Source: Acidimicrobiia bacterium (lineage in GTDB: Bacteria > Actinomycetota > Acidimicrobiia > IMCC26256 > JAOSJL01). From it: DNA of 64,000 nucleotides. This document shows positions 35,842 through 56,519 of the stretch, piece after piece; the first letter of the stretch is position 1, and each line of letters begins with the position of its first letter. Both the position numbers and the translations under genes were made by a program. The notes under the pieces were generated by a model. It saw nothing but the letters and a program-made list of their open reading frames with translations. It did no database searches and was not told the origin of the DNA. The stretch covers positions 2,661,937 to 2,725,936 of the forward strand of contig JAOSJL010000001.1 of assembly GCA_027494115.1 (NCBI GenBank), read 5' to 3'.

Positions 35842-37386
35842 CTAGTACGGGTAGGCCTCGCCCTGGTCGTGGCCGAGCCGGCGCGAGAGCCAGCCGATGC
35901 GCCGCCACAGCGCAAACTTGACCAGGAGATTCTTCGCCATCCAGGGGAACTGCGCGCACTGGCGCAGTGCGTTCCCGAAACGGGCCCATACACCGAGGTG
36001 CTCGCGCCGATACTCGGACATGGAACGCTCTCGGCCGACGTAGCGGAAGTCGGCACCGAGAAACAGCGTGCGGACAACGGCGAGGGTGACTCCCGCTGAG
36101 CTGAACGTGTCGTGGATGAGCATCGTGCCCCCGGGGCGTACCCGGCCTCCCCACGCCAGAATGTCCGCGGCCGCCTCGCCGGGCCGGTGCGAGCCGTCGA
36201 CGTACAGGAGGTCGATGGGACCGTCGACGGCGGCGAGCGCTCTGCTCGAGAACTCCCGTACGTAGCGGACCCGATCAGTCACTCCCGCCCGCTGGAGGTT
36301 CTCGACGAAGACTTCGTGATCCCCCTGGCCCGCTTCGGCGGGACCGCTCCATTCCGAAGGCCCACGGTCGTTTCCGGCATGGGGATCGATGGCCACGACC
36401 TCCACGTCGTCCCTGGCCGCGTTGGCGAGCACGATGGCGCTACGACCCTGGAAGCTGCCGATCTCGACGATGCGACCACCCGGTGGGACGGCCACGGCGC
36501 GGTCCCACAGGCGGCGCGCCTGGCCATCGCTCATCCAGCCCTCGACATCGGCAACCGACGCCAGGGTCGTCGCAAAGCCCGTATCCGCCGCTTCGCCACC
36601 CACCCCGTCCGTGCCGCCCACTTCCCTCTCCTTGGTCATTCGGATCACGCAGTTCCACGTCAGCACCTCCCGGACACCGGGAACTCGTGTGACAGCTCTC
36701 GCCCAGGGCCAGTAGCGCGGCTCGACCGAGTCGATACGCAGGCCCGCCGTGTCGTCGAACGTGCGAAGAGTCGGGCCGATGTGCACGGCGAAGAGAGCCT
36801 CACCGTAGCGGTTCTTCCGAGGCGGCCCGTGCCGGCGCTCGTACAACGACGGGCCGAGACGCGGACCGAGGAACTGGTACGGCGTCATGTCGTGGCCGCC
36901 CCACGGCGAGTACCAGTTCGTCCACGACAGGTAACACCACCCTCCGGGTCGGAGTACCCGGGCGATCTCACGCGCGACCGCGGCCGTGTCAGGGGTGTGC
37001 TCCAGCATGTTCGAGCAGAACACGCCGTCCAGCGACTGGTCGGGAACCGGAAGGCGTGTGGCGTCACCCAGCAGAACACCCGCCGGAACGTCTCTCGGAG
37101 ACCCGATCTCCTCCGGGTCGCCCTCGATCGCGACCACCGTCGCACCGGCCGCGCGTAGCGCGTCGGTGTAGTAGCCCGGACCGCAGCCCAGGTCGGCCAC
37201 CCGCTGACCCCGGAGCGGCCCGTGGCGCCACGCGAGATCTTCCACCGCCTCCGCCGCCAGGTAGCGGTAGAAGGGTCCGGGATTCTCACGCTCGTCGCGA
37301 AACAGCGTCCACAGAGTGCGAACACGGGCCATCCCGCGTCGACGCTTCATCTGCTCGGATCCCGAGGTCTCGGGCGATGTGTTCAT
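35842..37386 (-). CDS. fusion of two class I SAM-dependent methyltransferase domains (Methyltransf_11-like + Methyltransf_24/TylF-like)
   Basis: Track ORF 35842..37884 trimmed to ATG 37386 (MNTSPETSG...). Domain 1: VADLGCGPGYY, VFCSNMLEH, RPGGWCYLS. Domain 2: IVEIGSFQGRSAIVLA, LLYVDGSH, RPGGTMLIHD. Confidence 0.75.
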   Translation of the reverse strand: MNTSPETSGSEQMKRRRGMARVRTLWTLFRDERENPGPFYRYLAAEAVEDLAWRHGPLRGQRVADLGCGPGYYTDALRAAGATVVAIEGDPEEIGSPRDVPAGVLLGDATRLPVPDQSLDGVFCSNMLEHTPDTAAVAREIARVLRPGGWCYLSWTNWYSPWGGHDMTPYQFLGPRLGPSLYERRHGPPRKNRYGEALFAVHIGPTLRTFDDTAGLRIDSVEPRYWPWARAVTRVPGVREVLTWNCVIRMTKEREVGGTDGVGGEAADTGFATTLASVADVEGWMSDGQARRLWDRAVAVPPGGRIVEIGSFQGRSAIVLANAARDDVEVVAIDPHAGNDRGPSEWSGPAEAGQGDHEVFVENLQRAGVTDRVRYVREFSSRALAAVDGPIDLLYVDGSHRPGEAAADILAWGGRVRPGGTMLIHDTFSSAGVTLAVVRTLFLGADFRYVGRERSMSEYRREHLGVWARFGNALRQCAQFPWMAKNLLVKFALWRRIGWLSRRLGHDQGEAYPY

Positions 37387-37473: not shown

Positions 37474-38637
37474 GTGCCCACCGGCGAGAGCGCGGCCGCG
37501 ATCGCCGAGGTGGCGGCCTCGGGCGGGATCGAACGGATTCACATGTTCGCCTGGCGCGACGTCGAGGACGTCGAGGCAGGTGGCTCGGAGCGCCACGCGG
37601 CCGAACTCGCCCGGCACTGGACCGACGCAGGCCTCGAGGTCACGATGCGCACCTCCTTCGCTCAGGGGCGGCCGCCCGAGGAGTGGCGGGACGGCTACCG
37701 CGTTCGCAGGCGCGCCGGCCGGTACCAGGTCTTCTGGCGGGCCATCGCCGGGGAGATCGCCGGGCGCAACGGCCCACGCGACGCGGTGGTCGAGATCTGG
37801 AACGGCGTGCCCTTCTTCGTGCCTCTGTGGACCTCCGGACCGCGCCTCACGTGGGTCCACCACGTCTACGGTGGGATCTGGCACCGCACGCTTCCCGAGC
37901 GACTCGCGCGTGTGGGCGAAGCCGTCGAACTCACGATCGCGCCACGGGTCTACCGGCGAAGTCCCGTCGTGACCGACAGCGAGTCCTCGCGTCAGGAGAT
38001 CATCCGCCGGCTCGGACTCGACCCCGCGAACGTCTCGGCGGTGGCGCCCGGGGTCGACCCCCGCTTCTCACCCGGTGACGGCCTCAGTCCACATCCGTTG
38101 GTGGTCGCTGTCGGGCGCCTCATTCCCGCCAAACGCTTCGACAGTCTCATCCGGGCACTCGAACCTGTCGCGCGGCGGCGACCCGACCTCGAGCTCGCGA
38201 TCGTCGGCGACGGATATGAACGCGACCACCTGCGGGAGATCGTGGCCGAACTCGATGCCTCCCGTTGGGTCCGTCTGACCGGACCCGCCACCGAGGATGA
38301 ACTCGTCGACTGGTACCGCTCGGCATGGATTCTCACGAGCGCGTCCTCCGCCGAAGGATGGGGCATGACGATCACCGAAGCCGGCGCGTGCGGAACGCCG
38401 GCGGTCGTCACCGACATCGCCGGCCACCGTGATTCGGTGCGCGACGGTGTGACCGGCCTGCTCGCGTCGACGATCGGAGACCTGGCGGACTGCGTGGCAC
38501 GTCTGGTCGATGATTCCGACCTCAGGGCCCGACTCGGTGCAGCAGCGGTGGAGCGCGCTCGGGAGCTGTCGTGGTCCGACACGGCGCTCCACAGCATGGA
38601 GATCCTCGCGGCCGACTCGCGGCGGCGCCGATGCTGA
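37474..38637 (+). CDS. GT4 family glycosyltransferase (module 1)
   Basis: The GTG start has a GAGGAGG SD. The C-terminal GT-B signature is ASSAEGWGMTITEAGACGTPAVV. 387 aa. The stop overlaps the next start (ATGCTGA). Confidence 0.85.
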   Translation: MPTGESAAAIAEVAASGGIERIHMFAWRDVEDVEAGGSERHAAELARHWTDAGLEVTMRTSFAQGRPPEEWRDGYRVRRRAGRYQVFWRAIAGEIAGRNGPRDAVVEIWNGVPFFVPLWTSGPRLTWVHHVYGGIWHRTLPERLARVGEAVELTIAPRVYRRSPVVTDSESSRQEIIRRLGLDPANVSAVAPGVDPRFSPGDGLSPHPLVVAVGRLIPAKRFDSLIRALEPVARRRPDLELAIVGDGYERDHLREIVAELDASRWVRLTGPATEDELVDWYRSAWILTSASSAEGWGMTITEAGACGTPAVVTDIAGHRDSVRDGVTGLLASTIGDLADCVARLVDDSDLRARLGAAAVERARELSWSDTALHSMEILAADSRRRRC

Positions 38638-41600
38638 GCCGGTTGCGGTCACACACGAGCCTCGTGTCCCACGGTGTGCTGGCCGTGCTCACGTTCATCC
38701 CGCTTCTCCTCACCGCGACCGGCCGAGTCGTGGCCGACTCCAAACAGCTGCTGTACGTCGACCCGTCCCGGTGGTTGTCGCGCGCGCCGTACCTGTGGGA
38801 CCAGCACCTCGGCATGGGGACCGTCACCCACCAGAACATCGGCTACCTGTTTCCGATGGGTCCGTACTTCTGGCTCATGGACCTCCTCGGTGTCCCGGTC
38901 TGGATGGCGCAGCGGCTCTGGCTGGCGGCGATCCTTTTCGCGGCGGGGGCCGGGGTTCTGTTTCTCGCCCGGACCCTTCGTTGGACGGGCTGGGCGCCTC
39001 TCGTCGCCGCTCTCGCGTACGCCTTCTCGCCCTACGTCGTGCAATACGCCACGACCCTGTCGGTCTTCCTCCTGCCGTTCGCCGGTCTTCCGTGGCTGAT
39101 CGGGCTCACAGCCCGGGCGCTGCGCCGCGGCGGATGGCGCGACCCGGCGTTGTTCGCCCTCGTCGTTCTCACGGTCAGCGGCGTGAACGCCACGGCGCTC
39201 GCGTTCGTCGGGGTCGGACCGATCCTGTGGATCATCAACGAGACATGGGTGGCGCGCCGAGCGTCGACACGGCAGGCACTGGCGACGATCGGACGGATCG
39301 GCGTTCTCACGTTCAGCGTCTCGCTCTGGTGGATCGTCGCGCTGATGGTGCAGACACGACACGGGCTCCCCGTTCTCGACTTCAGTGAGACGCTCGAGAC
39401 GGTCTCGGTGTCGTCGTCGGGGCCTGAGGTGCTTCGGGGTCTCGGCATGTGGTTCTTCTACGGGCGCGATCCCGTCGAAACGTATTTCGCGGGAGCGCTA
39501 CGCCTGCTGACGAGCGTTCCCGCCCTGACCCTCAGCTTCCTCGTTCCCGGGATCGCCGTCGTGGCCGCGGTCGCGACGCGGTGGCGTCACCGGGCGTTCT
39601 TCCTCCTCCTCGTCGTCGTCGGCGTCGTGATCGCCGTCTCCACCCATCCATTCGACGATCCCTCCCCTCTGGGCCGCGCGATCCGCGACTCCGACTCGAG
39701 CCTGGCGCTGTCACTGCGGAGCTCGACGCGTGCCGTCCCGCTCGTGGCCCTGGGACTGGCCGTGCTCCTCGCCGCAGGTCTCGGAGCACTCGCCCGCCGC
39801 TACCGTGTCGTCGGCAATACTGCTCTGGCGCTCGTGGGTGTGCTCGCCGTCCTCAACCTGTCGCCGCTGTGGGACGGAACGATCATCTCCGACACGCGCG
39901 ACCGCCCCGAGGAGATCCCCGCCTACTGGACCGAAGCAGGCTCCGCTCTCGACGGCCCCGTGAAGAGTGGACGGATTCTCGAGATCCCCGGCAGCGACTT
40001 CGGTTCCTACCGCTGGGGCGACACGATCGACATCATCAGCCCCGGCCTCACCGACCGACCGATCGTGGCGCGCGAGGTGACGAGCTACGGCACCCCGGGA
40101 TCACTGAACCTGATGGCATCGTTCGACCTCCGCCTCCAACAGAACGTCCTCGACGCGCAGGCCGTGGCGCCCATCGCGCAGCTGATCTCGGCCAGTGATG
40201 TGCTCTTGCGTTCCGACCTCCAGTTCGAGAGGTATCGGACCCCCCGGCCCCGCGACCTCTGGAACCAACTCGTACCACCGCCACCCGGCCTCGGCGAGCC
40301 CGTCACCTTCGGGGGAGCCCACGCCCAACGTCCCCGTCGAACGGCTCCCGCTGCTCGACGAGACCGAGTTGGCCATCCCGTGGGACGCCCCGGACCCACC
40401 ACCCCTCGCTGCCTTCCCGGTGGAGAACCCGCGGCCCATGGTGCGGCCGGCCCCGGTGTCGAGATCGATGCTCCTGGCCGGAGACGCCGACGGTCTCATC
40501 GACGCCGCGGCGGCCGGTCTCATCGGCGAGGAGCAGCTCGTGCTCTATACGGGCACTCTCGCGGACGACCCCGACGCCCTGGCCCGCACTCTCGACAACG
40601 GCGCCGAGCTCGTCGTCACCGACACCAACCGTCGACGCGGTCAGAGGTGGCTGACCCTGCGTGACGGGACCGGCTACACGGAGACGGAGGGCGAGAAACC
40701 GCTCGTCGACGACCCGAGCGACGCGCGACTGGAGGTCTTCCCCGACGCGGGCGACGACTCCCGCTCCGTCACGACGATCGACGGTCCGACGGCACGCGCG
40801 ACGGCCTACGGCAACCCCGTGACCCTGACGCCGGACGCACGCCCGCAGCTCGCGGTCGACGGTGCTCCCGCGACAGCCTGGACCGTGGCGGCGTTCAGTG
40901 ATCCTGTGGGCGAGCGAATCGAGGTCACGACGCCCGAGCCCGTGACGACCGACTCGATCACACTCCGTCAGGCGCCCGGTGGGAACCGGCGCATCACGCA
41001 GGTCGGTCTCCGCCTCGACGGCGGTGAGCAATTCACCGTCGACCTGGGTCCCGAGTCCGACGCCGGCCAGGAGGTGACGTTCCCGGAGCAGACCTTCGAG
41101 ACCCTCGACATCGAGATCCTCGATGTGGATCCACACACCGAAACCTTCGCCGGGTTCTCCGGTGTCGGTTTCGCCGAGATAGCGATCCCGGGCGTGGAGC
41201 CCGCCACCGAGGCCGTACGGGTCCCGGTCGACCTCACCGACGCGGTCAGCGGCGACCTTTCGCCGGGCGCTGCCGAAAAGCTTCCACTCACGTATCTCTT
41301 CACGCGGCTGCGCTCCTCGGCCACGGACCGGATCCGCTCCGACGACGAGGTGCACCTCAGCCGCATCTTCGACGTTCCCGTCGAGCGGACCTTCACAGTG
41401 GAGGGCACCGTCCGTCTCCGGGCCGATGATCCGAGCGCCCCGGTCGAGGCCGTGCTGGGCCTCCCGGGAGCAGCGGGCGGAGGTGTCGACGTGACCGCCT
41501 CCGATGTTCTCGAAGGCAACGCGGCCGCCCGCCCGGCCGCCGCACTCGACGGCGACCGCACGACGGCGTGGAGTCCGGGGCTCGGAGAGCAGACGGGCCA

Positions 41601-43004
41601 ATTCCTCGAGTTCACCGCCGCCGAACCGGTCACTCTGGACGGCCTCGACCTCGCGGTCGTCACCGACGGTCGGCACTCCGTTCCCACCGAGCTCACCGTC
41701 GAAGCAGGTGGCGACGCGCGCGTCGTATCCCTTCCCGACCTGGAGGACCTCCCCGCACGAGGCACCACAACCCTGGTGTCCCTCGGTTTCGACGAGCTCA
41801 CCGGTGACACGGTACGTGTGACCGTCACGGGCGTCCGACCGGTCACGACCACCGACTACTTTTCCGGCGCGGCGGTGCCGCTGCCGGTGGGGATCGCGGA
41901 GTTGGGAATCGCGGGTGTGGATCTCGGTCCGCTGCCCGATTCGATTCCGCCCGTGTGCCGCGAAGGCCTGCTCGACATCGACGGAACACCGCTGGCCGTG
42001 CGCGTCTCGGGATCCACCGCCGACGCCCTCGCCGGGCGATCGCTCTCCTTCGAAGCCTGCGACGCTGCCGCTCCCGACAACGCGGCGGCGTCAATCGCGG
42101 TTCCGCTGTCGGCCGGAACGCACACCCTCACGTCGGGCTCGGGATCGGCAACCGGTCTCGACGTGGACCAGGTCGTGCTGTCCTCTCCGGGAGCCCCACT
42201 CCCCGACATGGAGCTCTCCACCGCCACGACACCGACCGTCGAACTCGACACCGTCGATCCCGTCAGTTTCGAGGCCACCGTGACCGGGGCCACCGACCCC
42301 TTCTGGCTCGTTCTCGGTCAGAGCCACAGCGAGGGCTGGGAGGCCACCGCCGGAGGAAAGGACCTGGGGTCACCGACCCTCGTCGACGGCTACGCCAACG
42401 GCTGGTACGTCGATCCCGCCGAGGTGGGCACGGACTTCACGGTCACCATGACCTGGACCCCGCAGCGGTGGGTCTGGATGGGACTGGCCCTGACCGCTCT
42501 CGGAGCACTGGCGTGCCTCGTCATCATCATCGTCGGACGTCGTCCGGGTTCGGGCGGCTCTGACGACAAAGAGGCCGATTCCACGCCGGCGCTGACCTCG
42601 CCCTTCCGGTCGGCGGGCCCCACCGTCCACCCGCTGACCGCGGCCGGTGCGGGCGTTGTCGCCGCCCTTCTCGCCACCGTGCTGTTCTCGCCCGTCATCG
42701 GCGTGGTGACCGGCGTGGCCGCGGGGGTTGCTCTCGCGACGACCCGGGGACGCGGATTGCTCACGGTAGGTGCAGTCGCCGCCTTCGGGGGTCAGCTCTG
42801 ATCGTGGTCGTCCAACAGTGGCGCCACAGATATCCGGTCGACTTCGCGTGGGCCGCCCACTTCGACCTGTCCCACGGGCTCGCCCTCCTGGCCGTGGCTC
42901 TGCTGGGCGCCGACGCCCTGATCCAGGCGTTCCGGAGACGCAGACTGGCCGCGGAGAAGAACTCCTCTCAGGACTCCGTATCTCAGGAGCCGTCCCAGCG
43001 CTGA
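38631..43004 (+). pseudogene. AftD-like giant GT-C glycosyltransferase (alpha-(1->3)-arabinofuranosyltransferase family / DUF3367) with discoidin-type CBMs, two frameshifts
   Basis: Collinear with the intact paralog 45513..49913 over its whole length. Frame changes occur at the G5 run 40311-40315 (extra G; ...GEPVTFG|EPTPNVPVERLPLLDE) and the G5 run 42787-42791 (missing G; ...AAFGG|SALIVVVQQW...PVDFAWAAH). Track ORF 42804..43004 is its true C-terminus. Span is exactly 1458 codons. Confidence 0.8.
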
Positions 43005-44187
43005 GGAAGCCGGTCGGGGTGGGCTGCGACCTCGTCGGCCACCACCTGCAACGTCCCGAGCGCACTCTGGGGCCATGTGAGGCGCGGGGCTCGTGCGAGC
43101 GCGCCCTCCGTGAGCCGTGCACGAAGCTCGTCGTCGGTGAGCACACGGACCATCGCATCGGCGAGTTCCTGAGTACCCGTGGCCAGGAGGCCCGTCGAGC
43201 CGTCGACGACGGCGTCGACATGACCGGGGATTCTGGTGGCAACCCCCGGCGTACCGCACGCGGCCCCCTCCGTGAGCGTGAGACCCCATCCCTCACGCAC
43301 CGACGTCGAGGCAACGAGCCAGGCCGCGCGGTAGCGGTTAACCAGGTCGTCGTTGGACACGCGACCGAGAAACTCGATCCACTCCCCACCGCCGAGGCGC
43401 CGCGCCTGGGCTTCCAGGTCGGCGCGCAGCGGCCCTCGCCGGCAATCCACACGCGGAGGTTCGGGACATGTCGACGAACCTTCGCGACGCTGTCGAGAAG
43501 CACGTCGAAGCGCTTGGGCGGCATGAACCGACCTGCGGCCAGGATCGTCGGTGCCGCAGCCTTCTCTCCGCCCGGCGAGAAGCGGGCGTCAACGCCGTTG
43601 GGGACGACCGAGATTTGACTGCCCCTGAAACCGAGGTCGTCGATGAGCGCTCGACGGGTGGAGTCGGACACCGCCACGATTCGGGTGTTGCGGTAGAGGG
43701 GCGGTTCGACATAGCGCTCGATGCCGTGAGCGATGTGCGAAGCAGCGGGCGGAAGCAGCGAGTGCCACATGTCGAGGTGGAGGTGATGCAGTACGGCGAT
43801 CCGTGGTGCTCGTGTCCACAGCGGGCCGAAGAACGGCAGTCCGTGGAAGATCTCCACCACGGCGTCGGGACGGCCGTCGAGGTTCAGCAGTCCGGCGAGC
43901 GCCGTGCGGGCGAAGACGGTGAACCGACCGCCACGGCGGATCACCCGGTAGCCGTCCCGGACGATCTCGTGCGGACGACCGGGCACTTCGGCGGTCCGGA
44001 GGGTCACGTCGAGGCCGGCCTCCGCCCAGAGCGCGGCGATCTGCGAGGCGTGCTCCTCACTCCCGCCCGCTGTGGGGTCGTCGCGGTCGCGCCACGCCAC
44101 CATGTGGACATTTTGGAGACCCACTGCGGCGGCCGTGGCGGCCATCGCCTCGGGAGTCGCGTCAGCAGGTGCAACACGTGTCGTCAT
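42983..44187 (-). pseudogene. GT4 family glycosyltransferase (third copy, inverted), frameshifted
   Basis: The N-part (track 42370..44187) MTTRVAP...NLRVWIAGEG joins the frame of track ORF 42983..43450 (PLRADLEAQARRLG...TSVREGWGLTLTEGAACGTPGVA). One base is missing at C-run 43433-43435. Span is 1205 nt (3n+2). Confidence 0.8.
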
Positions 44188-44341
44188 GGGCTGCGCAGGC
44201 TAACAGCGGGTGTGCCCGCCCCTGGTCCCGTCCAGGCCGTGTTCGACCGTCCGCTGGTGCGGGGCGCGGAATGGCAGACTGCACCCCTTGTGAGACCTGT
44301 TCCGAGCCGCGGGAGACCCTCGGGCTCCGGGGAGCGCCGAC

Positions 44342-45499
44342 GTGCCTGAGACAGCCGCAAAGATCGGGGACGTCGCCGACGAGGCCGGCCTTCGCCGGAT
44401 CCACATTCTGGCGTGGCGGGATCTCGACGACGTGGAGGCCGGTGGCTCGGAGGTCCACGCCGACCAGGTCGCCCGGCGGTGGGCCGCCGCCGGCATCGAC
44501 GTCACCATGCGAACGTCCCACGCCCAGGGACAGCTCCCCACCGGCATGCGCCACGGATACCGCGTGGTCCGTCGCTCGGGGCGTCACCTCGTCTTCCCCG
44601 ACGTCGCGCTCTCGGGCCTGCTGGGCGGAATCGGCCCCCGTGACGCTCTCCTCGAGGTGTGGAACGGCATGCCGTTCTTCACGCCGCTGTGGGCACGTGG
44701 GCCGCGCGTCACCTTCATCCACCACGTCCACGCACAGATGTGGCGTCAGGCCCTCACCCCCGGGCTCGCGCGCATCGGCGAGCTCGTGGAACTGGGCATC
44801 GCCCCCGTGCTGTACCACCGATCGCGGATTCTCACGCCGTCGGAGTCGTCGCGCCTCGAGATCGTCGAGCATCTCCGTATTCCCGCCGACCGGGTGTCGG
44901 CGGTACCCAACGGGGTGGACCCGCGTTTCGCGCCCGGAGGCGTTCGATCACCACACCCGCTCGTGATCGCGGTCGGTCGGCTCGTCCCCCACAAGAGGAT
45001 CGATGCCCTCCTCGACGCGCTCGCCGTGGTGCGTGAAGATCATCCCGACCTCGAGGCGGTGATCATCGGCGACGGCTACGAGCGTGGTGCGTTGGAGTCG
45101 AGAGCCCACGAGCGGAACATGGAGTCGTGGGTACGCTTCACCGGTCACGTCGACGACGACGCTCTCCTCGACTGGTGTCGCCGTGCCTGGCTGCTGGTGA
45201 GTGCTTCGTCCGCGGAGGGCTGGGGGATGACGATCACCGAAGCCGCCGCGTGCGGGACACCGGCAGTCGTCACGCGGATCGCCGGTCACGTCGACGCCGT
45301 CGCGGAGGGTCGAAGCGGCCTTCTCGCCGACTCCCCCGCCGAACTCGCCGAACCGATTTCGCGCGTACTCGGCGACCACGAGCTCCGTCAGCAGCTCGGC
45401 GAAGGCGCGCAGAAATACGCCGCGCAGTTCACCTGGGATCGTACGGCGCTCGAGATCCTGCGCGCGTTGGCCGACGAGGCGCTGCTGCGGCGCCGATGA
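44342..45499 (+). CDS. GT4 family glycosyltransferase (module 2)
   Basis: Paralog of 37474..38637 along its whole length (IHILAWRDLDDVEAGGSEVHA..., ASSAEGWGMTITEAAACGTPAVV). 385 aa. Confidence 0.85.
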   Translation: MPETAAKIGDVADEAGLRRIHILAWRDLDDVEAGGSEVHADQVARRWAAAGIDVTMRTSHAQGQLPTGMRHGYRVVRRSGRHLVFPDVALSGLLGGIGPRDALLEVWNGMPFFTPLWARGPRVTFIHHVHAQMWRQALTPGLARIGELVELGIAPVLYHRSRILTPSESSRLEIVEHLRIPADRVSAVPNGVDPRFAPGGVRSPHPLVIAVGRLVPHKRIDALLDALAVVREDHPDLEAVIIGDGYERGALESRAHERNMESWVRFTGHVDDDALLDWCRRAWLLVSASSAEGWGMTITEAAACGTPAVVTRIAGHVDAVAEGRSGLLADSPAELAEPISRVLGDHELRQQLGEGAQKYAAQFTWDRTALEILRALADEALLRRR

Positions 45500-45512
45500 C
45501 TGATCCGGCGCA

Positions 45513-48500
45513 ATGAGGACGTCCGAGACCGGCGAGGCCTCCGGCGTCGTTGCGCGTGACCCCTCGCGTCGCTTCTCACTCCTCGCCCACGGAGGCCTGG
45601 CCGTCCTCGCCTACGTGCCGCTCCTGCTCACCGCTCCCGGACGCGTGGCGGCTGACACCCGCGCTCTCATCTACCTCGACCCGGGCGGCTTCGTGCCACA
45701 GGCGCTGTCGCTCTGGGACACGTCGACACATCTGGGAACGGTCACCCACCAGAACCTCGGTCTGGCGTTCCCGATGGGAGCCTGGTTCTGGCTCACCGAC
45801 ACCCTCGGAATCCCGGTGTGGATCGCGCAGCGCCTCTGGTTGGGCACCATTCTGTTCGCGGCGGGCGCCGGCGTGCTCTACCTCACGCGCACGCTTCGCT
45901 GGACCGGCGCGGGTCCGCTGGTCGCAGCTCTCGTGTACATGCTCAGCCCGTACGTGTTGCAGTATGCGCCCCGAACGTCGGTGCTGATTCTTCCGTGGGC
46001 GGGTCTCCCGTGGTTGGTCGCCTACACGGAAAGGGCGGTGCGCACCGGCGGGTGGCGCTACCCGGCGCTCTTCGCTCTGGTGGCTCTCATCGTGGGGGGC
46101 GTCAACGCCACGGCGCTGATCCTCGTGGGTATCGCCCCGGTGATGTGGCTGATCTTCGTGATCTGGGTGACGCGCGAAGTCACCTGGCGCCCCGCGGTCG
46201 GCGCGGCACTACGGATCGCCGCCTTGACGGTGGCCGTGTCGGTCTGGTGGGTCGTGGCGCTGATGGTGCAGAGCCGCTACGGACTCCCGGTGCTGCTGTA
46301 CGGCGAGACCGTCGACCAGGTCGCCACGACCTCCACCGCCACCGAGGTGCTCCGCGGCCTCGGCTACTGGCTCTTCTACGGACGCGACGGTCTCCAACCC
46401 AACATCGCCGCCGCGGTGGCATATCTCCAGAACCCGGGACTGTTGACGGTGAGCTTCCTGCTTCCGGCCCTCGGTCTCGTCGCGGCCTTCGTGCTCCGGT
46501 GGCGGTACCGCGCCTACTTCGCAGCCCTCGTCGTCGTCGGGGTCGTGATCGGCGTCGGCACCTATCCGCCGGGCAACTCCGCGCCTCTGGGCGCCGCCTT
46601 CGCCGACTTCGCCGAGACCTCTTCGGCAGGTCTGGCGCTGCGATCCTCGTCGCGGGTCGTCCCCCTCCTCGTTCTGGGGTTCGCGGTCCTGGTCGGCGCC
46701 GCGACGACGGCCCTGCGCATCCGACGACCTCGCCTCGGGCTCGTCGTTGCCACGCTCATCGGAGTCCTCGCCGTGGCCAACCTCCCCGCTCTCGTCACCG
46801 GCGATTTCGTGGACCGCAACTTCGAGCGCGACGACGCTCTCCCGGAGTACTGGGAGGAAGTGGCGGAGGCCCTCGACGCCACCGACGACGGATCACGTGT
46901 CCTGGAGATCCCCGGCATCCAGTTCGCCAGCTACCGCTGGGGCACCACCTACGACGCTCCCGTCAGCGTCGGGCTGATCGACCGCGACATCGCCGCCCGC
47001 GAGCAGATCCCGTTCGGTTCCGCACCGTCGGCCGACCTCATGATCGCTCTCGACCGCCGACTCCAGGAAGGCGTGTTCGAACCGGAGGTACTCCCCGTTG
47101 CAGCGCGACTCCTCAGCGCAGGTGACGTGTTGCTGCGTTCCGACCTCGAATTCGAGCGCTTCTACGCACCCAGACCACGCCTCGTGTGGTCGCAGCTGCT
47201 CGGTTTCTCCACTCCGTCGGACGACGACCGAGCCGGAGGTCTCGACGAACCACAGGGGTTCGGCGAGCCGACCGAGAACGTGGCCGGGCCCGATTTTCCG
47301 CTCATCGACGAGCAGACCCTCGGACTACGCACCGAGACGGACCCACCACCCGTGGCGTTGTTCGATGTCGTCGGGGCACCGCCGGTGTTCCACACGAAAT
47401 CCACCACCGAGCCGGTTCTCCTGGACGGCGACTCAGAGGGGCTGCTCGACGCTGCGACGGCAGGACTCATGACGGGCGAAGAGGTCGTTCTGTTCGGCGC
47501 CACGCTCGAGGACGACCCGGACCTCCTCGCCCTCTCGCTCGAGAACGACGGCTCGATCGTCGTCACGGACACCAACCGCCTCCGCGAGCGCCGCTGGCGC
47601 TCGACGCGAGGCAACACGGGGTTCACGGAAACCGAAGACGAAGAGCTTGCCCACGCCGGTGTCGGCGAGGGTGAGGCGGTCCTGGAGGTCTTTCCCGACG
47701 CGTCAAACGACAGCCGCACTGTCGCGATCCACGACGGTGCGTCGGCATCGGCCACCGGTTACGGGGGACCTCAGACCTTCGACCCGGCGACTCGACCTGT
47801 GGCAGCCATCGATGGGGACGTCACGACCGCATGGCAGGTCGGGCCGCTCTTCGACGGCGTGGGAGAGCGGCTCGTGATCACCACCGACGAGCCCGTCACG
47901 ACCGACCACATCACGTTGCTGCAGACACAGAACAGCTTCGGGACGTACACGATCCGCGAGGTCGAGGTGCGCACCGATGGCGGCCAGACGTTCGTCGTGG
48001 AGCTCGGCCCGGAGTCACGCACCGGTCCCGGTCAGACGGTCACGTTCCCGGAAACCACCTTTTCTGAACTCGAGATCGAGATCACGGAGACCGGTGTCGA
48101 CGACCCCGAGGAACCCGAGGCCCTGACCCCGGTGGGTTTCGCGGAGGTGGGGATCCCTGGTGTCACGTTCGACGAGCTCGTCCGCCTCCCCGTCAACCTC
48201 ACGAACTCGATGGAGGGTTCGGAGGCCGAGAACACCGCTCTCTCGTACGTGATGACGCGCCTGCGCTCGAATCCGGCGGAGCCGTTGCGCCCCGACGAGG
48301 AGCTCGGAATGAGCCGCATCTTCGAGGTCCCCGCGAGCCGCGGGTTCTCGCTTGTCGGCACGGCACGGATTTCGGCCGCCATTCCCGACGAGCAGATCGA
48401 TGATCTGCTCGGTCTTCCGATCGCGAGCGATCCGGTCGTGGCCGCGCGGTCATCGAGTCGGCTGCCCGGGTCCCTCGAATCCCGTGCCCGGTCCGCCGTC

Positions 48501-49913
48501 GACGGCGACCTCGACACACGCTGGACGCCCGGCTTCCTTCAGAACATCGGCGCCACGGTCACGGTGGATCTCGCCGAGCCGACAACCTTCGACTCCCTCG
48601 ACCTGCAACTCGTCGCCGACGGGCGGCACTCGGTGCCGACCAGAATCGTCGTGTCGGCCGGTGGCGAAGAGCGCAGCGTCGACGTTCCGGCCGTCGAAGA
48701 CCGGTCGGGTGACAACGCCGTCGTCGCGGCACCGGTCGAGTTCGCCCCCCTGACGGGAGATTCCCTCACCGTTCAGATCGACGAGGTCCGCCCAGAGATC
48801 ACGACGGACTTCTTCAGCCAGGGCCCGATCGAGCTTCCCGTCAGCATTGCCGAACTCGGCCTCGGACTCGGCGAAGGCGTCGGCAGCGCCTCTTTGGACG
48901 ACGAGTTCCTCGAGACGTGTCGCGACGACCTTCTGACGGTTGATGGGGAGGAAGTACCCATCCGGGTCACGGGCGCACGGACAACCGCCGAGGCGCGCGG
49001 CGCACTGTCGGTGGAGGCGTGCGACGGCGCGCTGTCACTCGACGGCGGGACCCACGAGCTTCGCACGACGTTCGGACGTGACAGCGGGTTCGACCTCGAC
49101 CGTCTCGTCCTCGCCTCGGACGTCGGCGGCGGGGCTGTCCCCGTCACTGACGGCTCCCTTCCCGCCCCGACCGCGCCACCACCCGGTCCCGCCATCGAGC
49201 TGACGGATGAGGGTCGGGTCAGCTACGACGCCGACGTCGACGCTGCCGACTCGCCCTTCTGGTTGATTCTCGGGCAGAGCTTCAACGACGGATGGGAGGC
49301 GGACGCGCAGGGCCAGGGGGACCTCGGCGCTCCGACCCTCGTGGACGGCTACGCCAACGGCTGGGTGATGGATGCGGGTGGTCCCCGGAGCGTGGCCGTG
49401 GAATGGGTGCCGCAGAAGCTCGTGTACGCGGGCCTCGCCACCAGCTTCCTCGCGGCCTTGGCCTGCCTCCTGCTCGCGTGGCGCGGACGACGCAGCGATG
49501 ACGAGAGCGACGACGAGAGCGACGGCGTGCCCGACCTGGTGCTCCCCCGCACGGGGTCACCGGCACTGACGTCCACCCTCTCGCGCGTCCTCGCGGTGGT
49601 CGGAGCAGGAGTGGTGGGTGCCCTGCTCGTGGGGCCCGCATGGGGCCTCCTGCTCGCCGGTGTCACCCTCGTCGCCACCACGACCCGTGCGGGACGGAGC
49701 GTTCTCGTGGTGGCGGCCGTGGTCCTCGTGGTCGCCGCCTTCACGTCCGTCGTCGTGGGCCAGATCGTCGATCCCCACGTTCCCGACTTCGCCTGGGCGA
49801 ACCAGCAGGAGATCGGCCACCGACTGGCGCTCTCGGGTGTCCTGCTCCTCGGTGTCGACATCCTCCTCGACGTGCTGAGACACCGAGTGAGTTCCGAGAA
49901 GGCCGTTCAGTAG
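45513..49913 (+). CDS. AftD-like giant GT-C glycosyltransferase with discoidin-type CBMs (intact paralog)
   Basis: 1466 aa. The N-terminal polytopic domain carries LIYLDPGGF...GTVTHQNLGLAFPMG...PYVLQY. The central soluble region has repeated DGD..T.W F5/8-type-C-like signatures. The C-terminus has TM helices. Confidence 0.85.
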   Translation: MRTSETGEASGVVARDPSRRFSLLAHGGLAVLAYVPLLLTAPGRVAADTRALIYLDPGGFVPQALSLWDTSTHLGTVTHQNLGLAFPMGAWFWLTDTLGIPVWIAQRLWLGTILFAAGAGVLYLTRTLRWTGAGPLVAALVYMLSPYVLQYAPRTSVLILPWAGLPWLVAYTERAVRTGGWRYPALFALVALIVGGVNATALILVGIAPVMWLIFVIWVTREVTWRPAVGAALRIAALTVAVSVWWVVALMVQSRYGLPVLLYGETVDQVATTSTATEVLRGLGYWLFYGRDGLQPNIAAAVAYLQNPGLLTVSFLLPALGLVAAFVLRWRYRAYFAALVVVGVVIGVGTYPPGNSAPLGAAFADFAETSSAGLALRSSSRVVPLLVLGFAVLVGAATTALRIRRPRLGLVVATLIGVLAVANLPALVTGDFVDRNFERDDALPEYWEEVAEALDATDDGSRVLEIPGIQFASYRWGTTYDAPVSVGLIDRDIAAREQIPFGSAPSADLMIALDRRLQEGVFEPEVLPVAARLLSAGDVLLRSDLEFERFYAPRPRLVWSQLLGFSTPSDDDRAGGLDEPQGFGEPTENVAGPDFPLIDEQTLGLRTETDPPPVALFDVVGAPPVFHTKSTTEPVLLDGDSEGLLDAATAGLMTGEEVVLFGATLEDDPDLLALSLENDGSIVVTDTNRLRERRWRSTRGNTGFTETEDEELAHAGVGEGEAVLEVFPDASNDSRTVAIHDGASASATGYGGPQTFDPATRPVAAIDGDVTTAWQVGPLFDGVGERLVITTDEPVTTDHITLLQTQNSFGTYTIREVEVRTDGGQTFVVELGPESRTGPGQTVTFPETTFSELEIEITETGVDDPEEPEALTPVGFAEVGIPGVTFDELVRLPVNLTNSMEGSEAENTALSYVMTRLRSNPAEPLRPDEELGMSRIFEVPASRGFSLVGTARISAAIPDEQIDDLLGLPIASDPVVAARSSSRLPGSLESRARSAVDGDLDTRWTPGFLQNIGATVTVDLAEPTTFDSLDLQLVADGRHSVPTRIVVSAGGEERSVDVPAVEDRSGDNAVVAAPVEFAPLTGDSLTVQIDEVRPEITTDFFSQGPIELPVSIAELGLGLGEGVGSASLDDEFLETCRDDLLTVDGEEVPIRVTGARTTAEARGALSVEACDGALSLDGGTHELRTTFGRDSGFDLDRLVLASDVGGGAVPVTDGSLPAPTAPPPGPAIELTDEGRVSYDADVDAADSPFWLILGQSFNDGWEADAQGQGDLGAPTLVDGYANGWVMDAGGPRSVAVEWVPQKLVYAGLATSFLAALACLLLAWRGRRSDDESDDESDGVPDLVLPRTGSPALTSTLSRVLAVVGAGVVGALLVGPAWGLLLAGVTLVATTTRAGRSVLVVAAVVLVVAAFTSVVVGQIVDPHVPDFAWANQQEIGHRLALSGVLLLGVDILLDVLRHRVSSEKAVQ

Positions 49914-49922
49914 GATTCTGAG

Positions 49923-52168
49923 ATGCCGGACGACTTTGTCGAGCAGACCCGCGCGCCCGACAACGCTGGTGGCGATGTGCCCGAGGAGGAGCCGCCGAAC
50001 CCGGTCCTCTACCGAATCGCGCGTCGTCGTTTCGTGGCCGCCGTGATCGCCGGCGGCATCCTCGGCACCCTCGCCTTCGGTTGGATGGTCAGTCGCGGCA
50101 CCTTCGACCTCACCGAGTGGCAGAAGGTCGGGTACTTCTACGACGCGCAGACCGAGAGCTGGCTGGACGGCCACTGGGACATCGAGCAGAAGGTCCTCGG
50201 CATCGAAGCCTTCACCGTCGACGACAAGTCGTACATGTACCAGGGTCCGCTCCCGGCCATCCTGCGGCTACCCGTCTTCGCGATCACCGACTCCCTCTAC
50301 GGGCGTCTCACGGCGATCTCGATGCTGCTGGCCTTTGTGGTCGCCGTCACGTTCGCCGGACGGCTGCTCTGGCGGCTACGCAACATCATCCGCCCACGTG
50401 CCCCGGTCGGAAACGGGGAGATCGCCTTCACCGCGTTCTTCATGTTCGTGCTGGGTGGAGGCTCCAGTCTTCTCTACACGGCGAGTCGCGCCTGGGTGTA
50501 CCACGAGGCGATCCTGTGGGGAGTCGCACTGTCGATCGCCGCGTTCGAGGCCATCCTCGCCTTCTTCCAGAAGCCGTCACCCGGAAAGCTGGCGTGGGCG
50601 GCGTTCTTCACGTCGGGAGCGATGCTCTGCGCGTCTCGATCGGGCTCGGTCCGGTGGCCGCACTCGGACTGCTCACCCTCGGGCTTGCCATCTCCTGGCT
50701 GCGAACGCACCTGCGCGGCGATTCGGACTTCGTGCGTCGATGGGGCGACCGGCTTGCGTGGCTCTCACCGCGGCAGATCGCCGGGAATCCCCGCTACCTC
50801 ATCGGTGCCGCCGTTGTGTGCATCCTGCCGGTCGTTCTGTACGCGGCGGTGAACTACATCAAGTTCGACAGCTTCTTCAGCGTTCCCTTCGACGGCCAGA
50901 ATTTCTCGCAGGTCGACCGCGGTCGCCAGGCGTTCCTCGCCGAGAACAACGGAACGCTCTTCGGCCTGAAGTTCATCCCCACCACAGCGTTCCAGTACAT
51001 GCGACCCGACGCGCTCTCCTTCACGAGCACCTTCCCGTTCGTCGACTTCCCTCCGTTCCCCGGCAGAGTCTTCGGCGGCTACCGGCTCGACCTCTTCGAC
51101 CGCACCTCCAGCATCCCGTCGTCACTACCCTTCTGGTTCGCCCTCACCGTCCCTGCGGTCATCGCACTCGTGCTCCCCGCGCGCACCCGGATCCTCAAGG
51201 CCCTGGCCCTCGTCAGAGTGCCGGTCATCGGTGCAGCGGCCGGAGCCCTCACGCTCCTGCCCTTCGGCTACATCTCGAATCGCTACATCGCCGATGCATT
51301 CCCGTTCCTGGTCATCTCCGGCGGCATCGGGATGTATCTGCTCTGGGCGCGCTTCGACCGGCGGTCGGTGCCCGTCACCTGGTGGGTGAAACCCGCGGTC
51401 GGTGGCCTCGTCGTGCTCGGCGTGTTCACGATCTGGGCCAATGCCTCACTTGCTCTTCTCTTCCAGCGTGCGTACTCACCCAACGTTCCCGAACACGTCA
51501 TCGCCGACTGGATCGAGACCCAACACAACGTGAACAGCGCACTCGGCATCGACGACCTCGATCGTGTGGGGTTCGGCGATGAACTCCCGGTGTCCGGCCG
51601 CAGCGGCGACCTCTTCATCATCGGCGCGTGCGACGGTCTCTACCTGTCGGACGGACAGGAGACCAACGACGTCAAGTGGACCAACTGGAATGCCGTCGAA
51701 CGCACCGCCGCCACGGGACATTTCCGCTACGAGGCGACCTTCGAGGAGCGACCCGAGGGCACACGCGAACCCGTCATGGTGTCGGGGACTCCCGAGGCTC
51801 CGAACGTCGTGTGGATGGAGCACCTCGGCGACGATCAGGTCGTGTTCGGATACGACGGCGAGCCGGCCGACTGGGAGTTCCTCCCCGTCGACATCGAGTA
51901 CGGGAAGACCTACACACTGGATCTCGTCATGGACCCCCGTGTGGCCTCGCTCATCGTTCGACTCGACGACGAGCTCGTCTTCGAGACCTTCTACACCGGG
52001 CCACGGGAGATCGAGGTGGGTGAGAACACCGTGGAGGCGCCCGGTGTCGGCCCGTCGCTCGGCGCGGAACTGGTACCGCTCCCCACCGACACCCCGGTGT
52101 GCGACGAACTACTCGCCGACCTGGAGGATCAGAACTCGTCAGCGTCGGGGAGAACACCCAGCTCGTAG
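49923..52168 (+). pseudogene. polytopic membrane protein, probable GT-C-fold glycosyltransferase with a C-terminal soluble beta-rich domain, frameshifted
   Basis: Track ORF 49923..50852 (…FYDAQTESWLDGHWDI…YMYQGPLPAILRLP…) continues in the frame of 50081..52168 from …RVSIGLGPVAALGLLTLGLAISWL. One base is missing around 50620-50635. Span is 2246 nt (3n+2). The family assignment is tentative. Confidence 0.6.
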
Positions 52169-53613
52169 AGGTACTGGTACGCGAACAGGTTCGGCCACAC
52201 CGACACACCGAACCGGTCGATCTTGCCCAGCGCGCCGCCACCGCGCGCCGACGCACCTCTGTGATCGTCGCCGCCCTGCTCGTTCACACCGGCCTCACCC
52301 GCACCGCGGTCGACGACCTCCAGAGGCAGCCCCACCGCCTCACGGCGGCGTACGTCGAAACCGGCACCGGACGCGATGCGCTCGAAGCTTCGACGGGTGA
52401 AGAACCGAACATGGCCGCGGTCGAGGATGCCCCGCCGGTCGTAGTCGAAACGCCCGAGCGCCACGCGCGCACGCGGATACCAGTGGGCGAAGTTGGGGAT
52501 GCTCGTCACGAGTGAGCCGCCGAGGCGCAGCCGACCGCGGATCTCGACCATGAGGTCGCCCGGCTCGCGCACGTGCTCGAGAACGTCGGCAGCCAGCACG
52601 ATGTCGTAGCCCGTGCCCACTTCATCGGGAATCCCGTGGTCGAGGTCGGCTTCGACGAACTGGTCGACACGCTCCCCCACGCCGTCGATCTTCTCGATGT
52701 CGACGCCGGTGACCGTATGACCGTGCTCACGCAGCAACGCCGCCAAGGATCCGTCCGAGCAGCCCAGGTCGAGGATCCTGCTGGCCGGTCGGCCGCGCAG
52801 CCACGCCATCAGCCGCACGTGCGACGTGTCGTCGGACTCCTTCAGTTCGTAGCCCTGGTCGGCGAACGCCATCTCCCCGGTTCCGAAACCCATCTTGTGG
52901 GCTCGGTAGCGCACGACGTCCTTGCTCACGTCGCGGGCGTACTTCATCCCGTCGACGTAGCAGATCTCATCGCCGTAGTACGTGGGGATCGGGACCTCGG
53001 CGATCCGCTTCGAGGCCTCCCTGAGCTGGATGATGATCTGGGTGTCGAAGTTGAAACCGTCGTCGTTGCGGTCGAAGGGAATGTCCTTCAGGGCTGCGAC
53101 GCTGTAGGCGCGGTAGCCCGAGTGCCACTCACTCAGGTCGAGGCCGACCACCTTGTTCTCGAACGTCGTGAGAATCCGGTTGCCGACGTACTTGTACATC
53201 GGCATGCCCCCACGACGCGCTTCGCCCTCGTCGAGCATCCGTGAGCCGAACACCGCGTCGGCCTCGTCGCGCTCGAGCGGTTCCACGATCTGGGGGAGGA
53301 ACTCCGGTGCGTACTGACCGTCGCCGTGGAGCAGTACGACGATGTCGAGGTCGTGGTCGATGGCCCAGCGGTAGCCCGCCTTCTGGTTCCCGCCGTACCC
53401 GAGGTTCCGCGGGTGACGGACCACCGTGAGGGGCAGATCCTCCTGATGCTGCTGGTAGCCGAGACCCACGAGGTAGGTGGAGTCCTGGCTGGCGTCGTCG
53501 CCGATGAGAACCTTGGTGATCCGCGGTCGGAAGTCTTCGGGAATTCGGTCGAGGACGTGCGCGAGCGTCGAGGCGGCGTTGTACGTCACGACGAGAATGC
53601 CGATGCGCTTCAT
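52129..53613 (-). CDS. bifunctional GT2 glycosyltransferase / class I SAM-dependent methyltransferase
   Basis: GT2 half: ILVVTYNAASTL, IGDDASQDST, NLGYGGNQKAGY, LLHGDGQY. MT half: ILDLGCSDGSL, VLAADVLEHV, RLGGSLVTSIPN. 494 aa. Confidence 0.85.
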   Translation of the reverse strand: MKRIGILVVTYNAASTLAHVLDRIPEDFRPRITKVLIGDDASQDSTYLVGLGYQQHQEDLPLTVVRHPRNLGYGGNQKAGYRWAIDHDLDIVVLLHGDGQYAPEFLPQIVEPLERDEADAVFGSRMLDEGEARRGGMPMYKYVGNRILTTFENKVVGLDLSEWHSGYRAYSVAALKDIPFDRNDDGFNFDTQIIIQLREASKRIAEVPIPTYYGDEICYVDGMKYARDVSKDVVRYRAHKMGFGTGEMAFADQGYELKESDDTSHVRLMAWLRGRPASRILDLGCSDGSLAALLREHGHTVTGVDIEKIDGVGERVDQFVEADLDHGIPDEVGTGYDIVLAADVLEHVREPGDLMVEIRGRLRLGGSLVTSIPNFAHWYPRARVALGRFDYDRRGILDRGHVRFFTRRSFERIASGAGFDVRRREAVGLPLEVVDRGAGEAGVNEQGGDDHRGASARGGGALGKIDRFGVSVWPNLFAYQYLYELGVLPDADEF

Positions 53614-55353: not shown

Positions 55354-56519
55354 CTAGGGCGTGTAGATGCCGCTGAAGGTGAACATTGCGTAGGCGACGA
55401 GGGCCCCGGCAGACACGGTCATGGCCACACGCTCGGCCCGTTGGTCGGCCGTGACCATGGCGACGACGATGATGAACGGAAATGCCGCCATGGCGTAGCG
55501 CTCGAGCGAATCGAGGTTGCTGGCGGAGAGCGACAGGAGCAGGATTCCGGCCGAGAAGAGGCCGTAGGAGACCGGCAGCCGCATGAACATCACGACGAGG
55601 AGCGCGAGGAGGAACACCCCCCACGGGAAATGGAGCGCCCGTAGGAGGTCCTCCCGCGCGATGAGGTCTCCGGCGTAGTCGAGCAGACTCGACACCGGGT
55701 GCGCGCGGAACCCTGGCGGGTCGGATCGCTCTGGAGGGTGAGGGGGAGGAAGAGATCGCCGTAGACGATCTGTACCCACACCAGATAGATCCCGATCCCG
55801 ACACCGGAGGAGATCACGGCCAGCAATCCGAGAAGGCGCTCCCGCGAGGCCGATCTCTTCCAGCACCGCCAGAGCTCTGCGGCCGCCGCGACGGCCAGGA
55901 ACACCGCGAAGGGCCGCGTGAGCCCGGCCACCACCCCCAGGGCGATGGCGGGACCCCAACGTCTCGAACGAATGGCGAGGAAGAACCCGACCGCGAGTGC
56001 CAGGAAGAGCGCTTCGGCGTAGCCCATCACGAGCACGAAGGCTGTCGGCCAGATCGCCGACAGCCACACGGCGCGGGTGGCGAGAGCCTCGTCCCCGGTT
56101 TCGCGCATGACGAGGCGTCGCAGTAGCACCATGAACACGATCGCCGACACGTTGGCGATCAGTAGGAGTGCGAGATCGACATTCCCCACGACCAGCGCCA
56201 GCGCTCGGCCGAGCAGCGGGAACAGCGGCCAGAACCGCAACCCCACCTCCCCCACGCCGCCGTAGCCGTCTTCCGCGATTCCCTGATACCAGTCGGCGTC
56301 CCACGCCAGAAGCCCATCGCGCAGCTGGGTCGGGTCCGCGCCCCTATGGAGCTCGTCGACCACGATCTCCGCGACGACGAGCGCAGCGACCGTGAGGACA
56401 CGCCCGACGATCCACGGCAGTGCGACGAGGCGCAGCTCCACGGCCCATCGCTCGACGACCTCCGAGATCCCACGTCCGGGTCGTGCGGACGCCGAGGAGG
56501 TGTGGGCATCCGGCGTCAC
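55354..56519 (-). pseudogene. polytopic membrane protein, PIG-V-like/GT-C mannosyltransferase-like, frameshifted
   Basis: The WDADWYQGIAEDGY motif is followed by multiple TM helices. …GDLFLPLTLQ switches frame to SDPPGFRAHPVSSLLDY…. One base is missing around 55715-55740. Span is 1166 nt (3n+2). Confidence 0.6.

Follow-up and report, generated by a model that had tools for sequence, protein, structure and literature searches.

This study concerns a stretch of 64,000 nucleotides (hereafter the window; G+C content ~68%) from an Acidimicrobiia bacterium (GenBank assembly GCA_027494115.1, contig JAOSJL010000001.1, positions 2,661,937 to 2,725,936 of the forward strand). Two gene pairs in it each combine a cytoplasmic family-4 glycosyltransferase of the GT-B fold (GT4) with a giant membrane glycosyltransferase of the GT-C type that carries carbohydrate-binding modules (CBMs) and resembles mycobacterial AftD. 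In the first pair GT4_1 (37474..38637, plus strand, 387 amino acids, intact open reading frame (ORF)) precedes AftD-like_1 (38631..43004, plus strand, 1457 amino acids after repair of two single-base errors). In the second pair GT4_2 (44342..45499, plus strand, 385 amino acids) precedes AftD-like_2 (45513..49913, plus strand, 1466 amino acids), and both of these are intact ORFs. A third GT4 paralogue, GT4_3 (42983..44187, minus strand, 401 amino acids after repair), lies inverted between the copies; it is convergent and tail to tail with AftD-like_1, which it overlaps by 22 nucleotides (42983-43004), and divergent from GT4_2 at a distance of 154 nucleotides. Our analysis agrees with a first-pass annotation of the same DNA on the position and family of all five genes and on the placement of the inverted GT4. 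Overall, the locus is best read as an old tandem duplication of a conserved unit of a GT4 and an AftD-family GT-C, whose diverged pairs would carry out inside and outside glycosylation in the pathway of a decorated envelope glycan; we give this reading a probability of about 0.6.

At the first junction the stop codon of GT4_1 overlaps the start codon of AftD-like_1 in the string ATGCTGA (38631-38637), as had already been described. At the second junction AftD-like_2 starts 13 nucleotides past the stop codon of GT4_2, and an out-of-frame ATGA is retained at 45496-45499. The string GGCGCCGATG is common to both GT4/AftD junctions. The second junction (45496-45516) also holds a mini-ORF of six codons, ATGACTGATCCGGCGCAATGA, which has ATGA overlaps with both the GT4_2 stop and the AftD-like_2 start. 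This mini-ORF may be the relic of an ancestral 4-nucleotide overlap or may act as a termination-reinitiation relay. A scan of 35.5-53 kb for promoters and terminators found none above the shuffled expectation.

Analysis of the three GT4 proteins revealed matches above the Pfam gathering thresholds for both PF00534 (Glycos_transf_1; E value 9.5e-31 for GT4_1 and 2.2e-32 for GT4_3) and PF13439 (Glyco_transf_4). The EX7E motif was found in all three (EGWGMTITE or EGWGLTLTE) at residues 294 (GT4_1), 292 (GT4_2) and 299 (GT4_3), and no transmembrane-like segment was found in any of them. The closest solved relatives are MshA and BshA. In a scan against NCBIfam none of the GT4s matched a specific equivalog; the top match, MshA, scored far under its cut-off.

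Sequence and architecture place both large proteins in the AftD family. The PF11847 (GT-C_AftD) model scores 303.4 bits with AftD-like_1 (E value 3.2e-90) and 298.9 bits with AftD-like_2 (E value 7e-89) at a cut-off of 26, and the match covers 648 of 661 model positions. Both proteins also match the F5/8-type-C and CBM_AftD models, and AftD-like_1 matches DUF7402 as well. Hydropathy analysis revealed about nine N-terminal and four C-terminal transmembrane-like segments. Residues 22-1400 of AftD-like_2 align with residues 36-1378 of Mycobacterium abscessus AftD (6W98/6WBX) at a single-sequence E value of 1e-36, and a profile of 19 AftD-like sequences reaches 3e-75 and matches three regions. The window proteins thus share with mycobacterial AftD (Rv0236c) the PF11847 domain, the CBM_AftD and F5/8-type-C domains, full-length collinearity and both the N- and C-terminal transmembrane bundles, although the relation is distant (E value 1e-36). 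Homologues of AftD in 11 other actinobacterial orders, Acidimicrobiales and Frankiales among them, were reported by Tan et al., so finding this family in the window is not new. AftD-like_2 is recorded in the database as an Acidimicrobiia arabinofuranosyltransferase from a metagenome-assembled genome (MAG); PGAP already names these proteins.

Five residues, K39, D41, E251, K361 and D474, were found to be essential in AftD by Tan et al. Counterparts of four of them are kept in the window proteins, with exchanges between lysine and arginine at two positions: E251 corresponds to the invariant E265, D474 to D481 (at least 90% conserved), K361 to the invariant R381, and K39 to lysine in copy 1 and arginine in copy 2. 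The fifth, D41, is replaced by tyrosine in the family consensus and by leucine in both window copies; nearby, aspartic acid persists where D37 aligns and again four residues downstream in an 'LDP' motif. Acidimicrobiia are, unlike mycobacteria, not known to make arabinogalactan, lipoarabinomannan (LAM) or mycolates, and the scanned window ORFs include no homologue of the decaprenylphosphoryl-arabinose (DPA) pathway genes (UbiA, DprE1, DprE2). Since D41 is not conserved and DPA-pathway genes are missing from the window, the arabinose specificity of AftD is not transferable to these proteins. The AftD-like identity proposed by the first-pass annotation is supported by Pfam and by the full-length alignment. 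Arabinofuranosyltransferase activity cannot be inferred from such data, and the sugar need not be arabinose.

A further difference from mycobacteria lies in copy number, as AftD is a single essential gene there and two tandem copies, directly coupled to GT4 genes, occur here. Tandem giant GT-C paralogues of ~1100-1450 amino acids with CBMs are also found in the mycobacterial embC-embA-embB cluster, whose members belong to GT53 rather than PF11847 and have no interleaved GT4 genes. The embC-embA-embB paralogues have diverged to different acceptors. This resemblance raises the alternative that AftD-like_1 and AftD-like_2 act as a hetero-oligomer in the manner of EmbA-EmbB (EmbA-EmbB-AcpM2 complex, PDB 7bvf), with the GT4s feeding one shared pathway. 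Such an arrangement would follow the embCAB pattern, every relative with the duplication retains both copies together, and a 2026 preprint shows AftD in a 1:1 complex with another membrane enzyme, TmaT. We nevertheless regard it as unlikely, given that most Acidimicrobiia loci have a single GT4/AftD-like pair, which means that the ancestral enzyme needs no paralogue to work with. The reading of two diverged GT4/AftD-like pairs, each working as a unit, is preferred.

A total of 80 loci with 81 AftD-like genes, from Frankia, Aquihabitans, Salinilacustrithrix and many Acidimicrobiia MAGs, were used for the analysis of gene neighbourhood (numbered here with the prefix L), and 76 of these genes had enough upstream sequence to judge. 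Of the 76, 48 are directly preceded by a GT4 homologue on the same strand, Frankia included, and 62 have one within 4 kb. At 10 loci a same-strand GT4 lies 1-3 kb downstream, and at four to five loci a convergent GT4 lies directly downstream, in the position of GT4_3. Among the 48 immediate pairs, the GT4 stop overlaps the in-frame AftD start as NTGA in 33, other overlaps occur in five and gaps of up to 60 nucleotides in 10; the NTGA overlap is enriched even against a generous null of 1/3 (binomial P ≤6e-7). The conserved adjacency and the conserved start/stop overlap were both points that the first-pass annotation had left to be checked in other genomes, and a lack of conserved adjacency, which it had named as grounds for refutation, is not what the survey shows. 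On the evidence of gene order, GT4 and AftD-like genes make up a conserved two-gene unit, predicted to be an operon, and adjacency together with overlap is in keeping with translational coupling and with partners in one function.

It could be argued that GT4 and AftD-like genes have no particular partnership and lie side by side simply because envelope-glycan clusters often contain both. The GT4 family is very large, 14 loci have no adjacent GT4 homologue and in about 15 the GT4 lies downstream instead, all of which would suit that explanation. We consider it improbable, as chance would have to account for 48 immediate same-strand upstream GT4s in 76 cases and a precise 4-nucleotide overlap in 33 of them. 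Moreover, the adjacent GT4s are 40-55% identical to one another, and their clades mirror the AftD tree, the major clades of the two trees holding the same loci. A specific GT4-AftD partnership is thus the better account of these data.

Comparison of the loci also revealed how common multiple copies are. On several contigs of Acidimicrobiia, two or three AftD-like genes occur within stretches of 16-24 kb, so that having more than one copy is common for the class; L026 (JBFIHN010000020.1) has three in 16.5 kb, and L037 and L072 have two each. The first-pass annotation was right that two giants lie here, and the contrast it drew with single-copy mycobacterial AftD does not make this locus an oddity among Acidimicrobiia. 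The divergent arrangement of a methyltransferase gene (minus strand), GT4 (plus strand) and AftD (plus strand) is found in at least 14 other loci, and an FAD oxidoreductase upstream of GT4, or a divergent double methyltransferase, recurs in many. A deep AftD clade (L026_12272, L081, L048, L066, L057, L051, L062) is separate from the clade that holds the window copies. Some contigs (L002/L015, L016, L055/L079, L005, L036, L007, L075) bear record titles such as Burkholderiales, Bifidobacterium breve, Bifidobacteriaceae or Acidobacteria; their AftD-like and GT4 genes nest among Acidimicrobiia sequences, and the MAG taxonomy labels of these contigs are therefore probably wrong.

In the window as given, neither 38631-43004 nor 42983-44187 forms a single ORF. 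The first-pass annotation had read through three single-base frameshifts in AftD-like_1 and GT4_3 without remark, and the coordinates of both are those of the repaired genes. AftD-like_1 is broken by an extra G in a run of five G at 40311 and by a missing G at 42786, and GT4_3 by a missing C at 43432 (its span of 1205 nucleotides is not a multiple of three). Removal of the G at 40311, addition of a G at 42786 and addition of a C at 43432 gave proteins of 1457 and 401 amino acids with no internal stops.

Two Logan short-read assemblies, SRR11288141 (a 24.2-kb contig; L001/L086) and SRR11288142 (L087), come from two samples and are ~99.95% identical to the window. The SRR11288141 contig spans window positions 29698-53857, encodes an identical AftD-like_2 protein and differs by seven insertion or deletion (indel) events and one substitution (38744). 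The indels lie mostly in G/C runs, at 31149 (two nucleotides), 31641 and 33428 in a region of acyltransferase genes, at 40311, 42786 and 43432, and at 50628 in MP748, a membrane protein gene downstream of AftD-like_2. SRR11288142 concurs with SRR11288141 at the three indels within its coverage. All genes are full length in the short-read assemblies, with 1457 amino acids for AftD-like_1 and 748 for MP748. Since short-read assemblies of the same population are free of exactly these indels, they are assembly errors, and the ratio of seven indels to one substitution across unrelated genes points to long-read consensus error rather than gene decay. Comparison with L082, an 85%-related MAG, revealed further window frame breaks in genes for an FAD oxidoreductase, a 388-amino-acid protein and an alcohol dehydrogenase (approximate positions 54748, 55715, 58815 and 59408); L082 is itself a long contig of a long-read MAG and is fragmented at other positions than the window. 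In all, window indels disrupt no fewer than nine genes, as is typical of a long-read MAG that has not been polished, and any ORF-based reading of the window thus needs frameshift-aware translation.

The indels at 40311, 42786 and 43432 are long-read consensus errors, and in the organism itself none of the five genes is broken. That AftD-like_1 and the inverted GT4 are pseudogenes, leaving module 2 alone functional, would be suggested by the three frameshifts falling in exactly these two genes. This is very improbable, because two independent short-read assemblies, otherwise identical save for one single-nucleotide polymorphism, are without all three indels. In addition, the indels lie in G/C runs, similar ones occur at no fewer than eight other positions in unrelated window genes, and the orthologues of both genes in L083 are intact, with low ratios of nonsynonymous to synonymous substitution rates (dN/dS) of 0.21 for AftD-like_1 and 0.11 for GT4_3. 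Pseudogene status was rejected for both genes on the short-read assemblies and these ratios.

The two modules are 61-62% identical at the DNA level, and the longest exact word that they share is 21 nucleotides. Protein identity is 54% between GT4_1 and GT4_2, 44-48% between GT4_3 and either of them, and 47% over 1466 columns between the AftD-like proteins, where the GT-C half is 52% and the CBM half 43% identical. The paired proteins are collinear but clearly diverged, as the first-pass annotation had noted, and its deduction of an old duplication is borne out; the near-identical DNA that it had named as the sign of a recent event is not seen. A recent or artefactual assembly duplication, which the occurrence of the same gene order twice in 12 kb might bring to mind, deserves next to no credence and is ruled out by the 61% nucleotide identity, the short common word and the separate orthologues of each copy in four other assemblies. 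By its divergence, the duplication is judged genuine and old.

A neighbour-joining tree was built from 83 AftD-like proteins of 80 species-representative loci. In this tree AftD-like_1 with L015 is sister to a clade of L026 with AftD-like_2 and L002, each clade having 100% support and the two jointly 98%, and each clade has orthologues in other MAGs. The tree requested for the AftD-like proteins in the earlier work thus places the two copies in sister clades. L002 and L015 belong to one MAG, and the upstream AftD fragment of L002 is nearer to AftD-like_1 (49%) than to AftD-like_2 (37%), which gives the order AftD_1'-GT4_2'-AftD_2' in that genome, without an inverted GT4. The inverted GT4 is absent between the modules in L026 also. 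In the GT4 trees (neighbour joining, 100-200 bootstraps) GT4_2 clusters with the GT4 that L002 carries between its two AftD genes (bootstrap 91-96), and GT4_3 and its L083 orthologue form a long separate branch. A duplication of the module en bloc, as first proposed, is supported for the AftD pair; for GT4_1 and GT4_2 the backbone bootstraps, below 50, are too low to show a sister relation, though both junctions share the string given above.

The full five-gene layout is retained in L082 and in L083, a 73%-related assembly. Identities to L082 are 97% for GT4_1 (a fragment), 93-97% for AftD-like_1, 93% for GT4_3, 94.5% for GT4_2 and 84.5% for AftD-like_2; those to L083 are 73% for AftD-like_1, 85.5% for GT4_3 (in the same convergent position), 87% for GT4_2 and 73% for AftD-like_2. 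Orthologues thus match one to one at 73-97%, compared with 44-55% for paralogues. Against the clean L083 assembly dN/dS is 0.21 for AftD-like_1, 0.20 for AftD-like_2, 0.11 for GT4_3 and 0.10 for GT4_2; values against L082 are partly unreliable owing to its frameshifts (for example, 0.55 for the N-terminal fragment of AftD-like_1). These values, 0.10-0.21 for the four genes for which they were computed, indicate that all five genes are under purifying selection. A B12-binding radical-SAM gene occurs between the inverted GT4 and GT4_2 in L083 (5380-7074, minus strand) and does not occur in the window.

Comparison with L082 also revealed a mosaic in AftD-like_2. In the CBM-encoding segment (residues ~660-1160, window 47500-49000), nucleotide identity is 75-78% as against ~96% in the flanks, and the synonymous rate is 0.73-1.0 as against 0.24, with omega at 0.14-0.17. 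The pattern suggests that strains have exchanged the glycan-binding region by homologous recombination.

The pairs sit within a cluster of about 30 kb (~27.5-58 kb). On the left are four AT3(-SGNH) membrane O-acyltransferase paralogues (27502-29415, minus strand; 29561-~31544, ~31757-33746 and 33890-35830, plus strand), for which the best NCBIfam model is SucT, below its cut-off, and a double methyltransferase (Methyltransf_11 and Methyltransf_24; 35842..37350, minus strand) that is divergent from GT4_1 with 123 nucleotides between them. The row of four AT3(-SGNH) genes, one of them on the minus strand, beside AftD-like genes is of interest in view of the complex of an AT3 protein (TmaT) with AftD in mycobacteria. 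To the right of the two pairs and GT4_3 lie MP748 (49923..52168, plus strand), a glycosyltransferase family 2 (GT2) protein fused to a MetW-like methyltransferase (52129..53613, minus strand), the FAD oxidoreductase, the uncharacterised 388-amino-acid protein and a PMT_2 GT-C. Look-up of the exact proteins of ORFs 56516-58108 and 27502-29415 gave no match, probably from the choice of start codon.

MP748 is the third gene of the second operon, a polytopic membrane protein of 748 amino acids that starts nine nucleotides after AftD-like_2, and the window lacks a C in it at 50628. It matched no Pfam or NCBIfam family and has about 208 homologues, none of them named. Its AlphaFold2 model (pLDDT 93) has a C-terminal lectin- or CBM-like beta-sandwich, and the top Foldseek matches in the Protein Data Bank are all GT-C enzymes (AglB, PglB, STT3, DPY19, AftA, EmbB, Pmt4) at TM-scores of 0.3-0.36. 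From the model, MP748 is probably a member of an undescribed GT-C family. It follows the AftD-like_2 orthologues in L002, L026, L082 and L083, and in the same four loci the GT2-methyltransferase fusion next to it is conserved. The GT2 part resembles polyprenyl-phosphate sugar synthases (AglJ, PpgS and dolichyl-phosphate hexose transferase models) and is a candidate maker of a lipid-linked donor for the GT-C enzymes.

A second envelope sub-cluster was observed at 9636-17375. It comprises another GT2-methyltransferase fusion (9636-11255, minus strand), an ORF of 472 amino acids without assignment (11630-13048) and two tandem proteins of ~740 amino acids (13045-15252 and 15126-17375) with C-terminal sulfatase/phosphodiesterase domains of the LtaS/EptA-like type, which form another tandem paralogue pair.

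On the preferred reading, the GT4, a retaining enzyme, would prime or lengthen a lipid-linked glycan at the cytoplasmic side of the membrane, with a nucleotide sugar as donor. Once the glycan had been exported, the GT-C protein co-translated with that GT4 would bind the polymer through its CBMs and add sugars from a polyprenyl-phosphate donor, for which the GT2 synthase of the cluster is a candidate source, and the AT3-SGNH acyltransferases and methyltransferases would then decorate the product. Divergence after duplication is strongest in the CBM half, and the pairs would therefore probably make different linkages or use different acceptors within the same pathway. Priming inside and elaboration outside with two specificities, as the first-pass annotation had suggested, is thus plausible. 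Several features point in this direction: the GT4s lack transmembrane segments and carry EX7E, the GT-C halves keep most of the essential AftD residues, and the CBM half is the less conserved (43% as against 52%). The mosaic in the CBM region of AftD-like_2 fits the view that the pairs differ in linkage or acceptor. A precedent for the inside/outside logic is the synthesis of lipomannan and LAM, where PimA and PimB' act before GT-C mannosyl- and arabinosyltransferases, and GT-C systems that draw on lipid-linked donors offer another.

The following points weigh against this reading. Donor, acceptor and product are putative assignments made from sequence alone, in a lineage whose envelope glycans are uncharacterised. 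The matches of the GT2 protein to polyprenyl-phosphate sugar synthases are far below the curated cut-offs, and no flippase was recognised among the window proteins scanned. The essential D41 is not conserved, a directly preceding GT4 is missing for about one third of AftD-like genes, and module 2 has a 13-nucleotide spacer in place of the overlap. Lastly, backbone bootstraps of the GT4 tree are below 50, too weak to place GT4_1 and GT4_2 as co-duplicated with their AftD partners.

Extracytoplasmic glycosylation by three components, a polyprenyl-phosphate-sugar synthase, a flippase and a GT-C, has been described (Kelly et al. 2024, PMC11127046). The present locus shares with those systems a CBM-bearing GT-C and, as a candidate, a lipid-linked donor from a cytoplasmic-face synthase of the same cluster. 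It differs in that no flippase was identified, that the conserved partner is a Leloir GT4 enzyme rather than the donor synthase, and that the GT-C is far larger. The literature searched yielded no earlier account of a GT4-AftD operon.

At the level of families, the closest counterpart is the tmaT/aftD locus of Corynebacteriales, which comprises the methyltransferase MtrP (Rv0224c), a GT4 (Rv0225/MSMEG_0311), MmpA (Rv0226c), Rv0227c, TmaT (Rv0228) and AftD. MmpA is homologous to the N-terminal 668 residues of AftD, and Rv0225/MSMEG_0311 is an essential GT4 with no assigned function. The corresponding genes in Corynebacterium glutamicum are aftD NCgl2757, tmaT NCgl2759, mmpA NCgl2761 and mtrP NCgl2764. 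In both settings an S-adenosylmethionine-dependent methyltransferase, a GT4, an AftD-family membrane protein and an AT3 acyltransferase occur together, and, to judge by the naming of Mycobacterium tuberculosis genes, Rv0224c (complement) diverges from Rv0225 (forward) as the methyltransferase (minus strand) does from GT4_1 (plus strand) here. The two also differ, as the AT3 proteins here carry SGNH, score best (below cut-off) with the SucT model and are not TmaT-like, and as the mycobacterial GT4 is monocistronic with AftD about 10 genes away. It is tentatively conceivable, though we would not count it as the likelier outcome, that the Acidimicrobiia cluster of methyltransferase (minus strand), GT4 (plus strand), AftD-family gene and AT3 preserves the compact, ancestral state of the essential tmaT-aftD locus; this idea rests on family content and on the orientation of the methyltransferase and GT4 genes, not on orthology, and it is a lead rather than a finding.

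Overall, what is described here is a variation on known biology: outside the mycolata, a conserved unit of a GT4 and an AftD-family gene has been duplicated. The practical impact is modest, as the organism is uncultured and both protein families are already annotated. The interest of the locus lies in that AftD-like genes are often stop/start-coupled to one GT4 subfamily in a deeply branching class of actinobacteria for which no mycolate wall is known, and that the pair was duplicated and kept. This offers a concrete hypothesis, namely that a GT4 and an AftD-type GT-C work as an inside/outside unit. As AftD is essential in mycobacteria and its exact role is still debated, these loci provide a simpler comparative system for the original function of the AftD family. 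If the ancestral-locus idea were true, the GT4-AftD partnership, and perhaps the AT3-AftD complex, would be older than mycolic acids and arabinogalactan and would first have served a different envelope glycan, and the essential GT4 Rv0225/MSMEG_0311 would partner an AftD-family enzyme from the cytoplasmic side.

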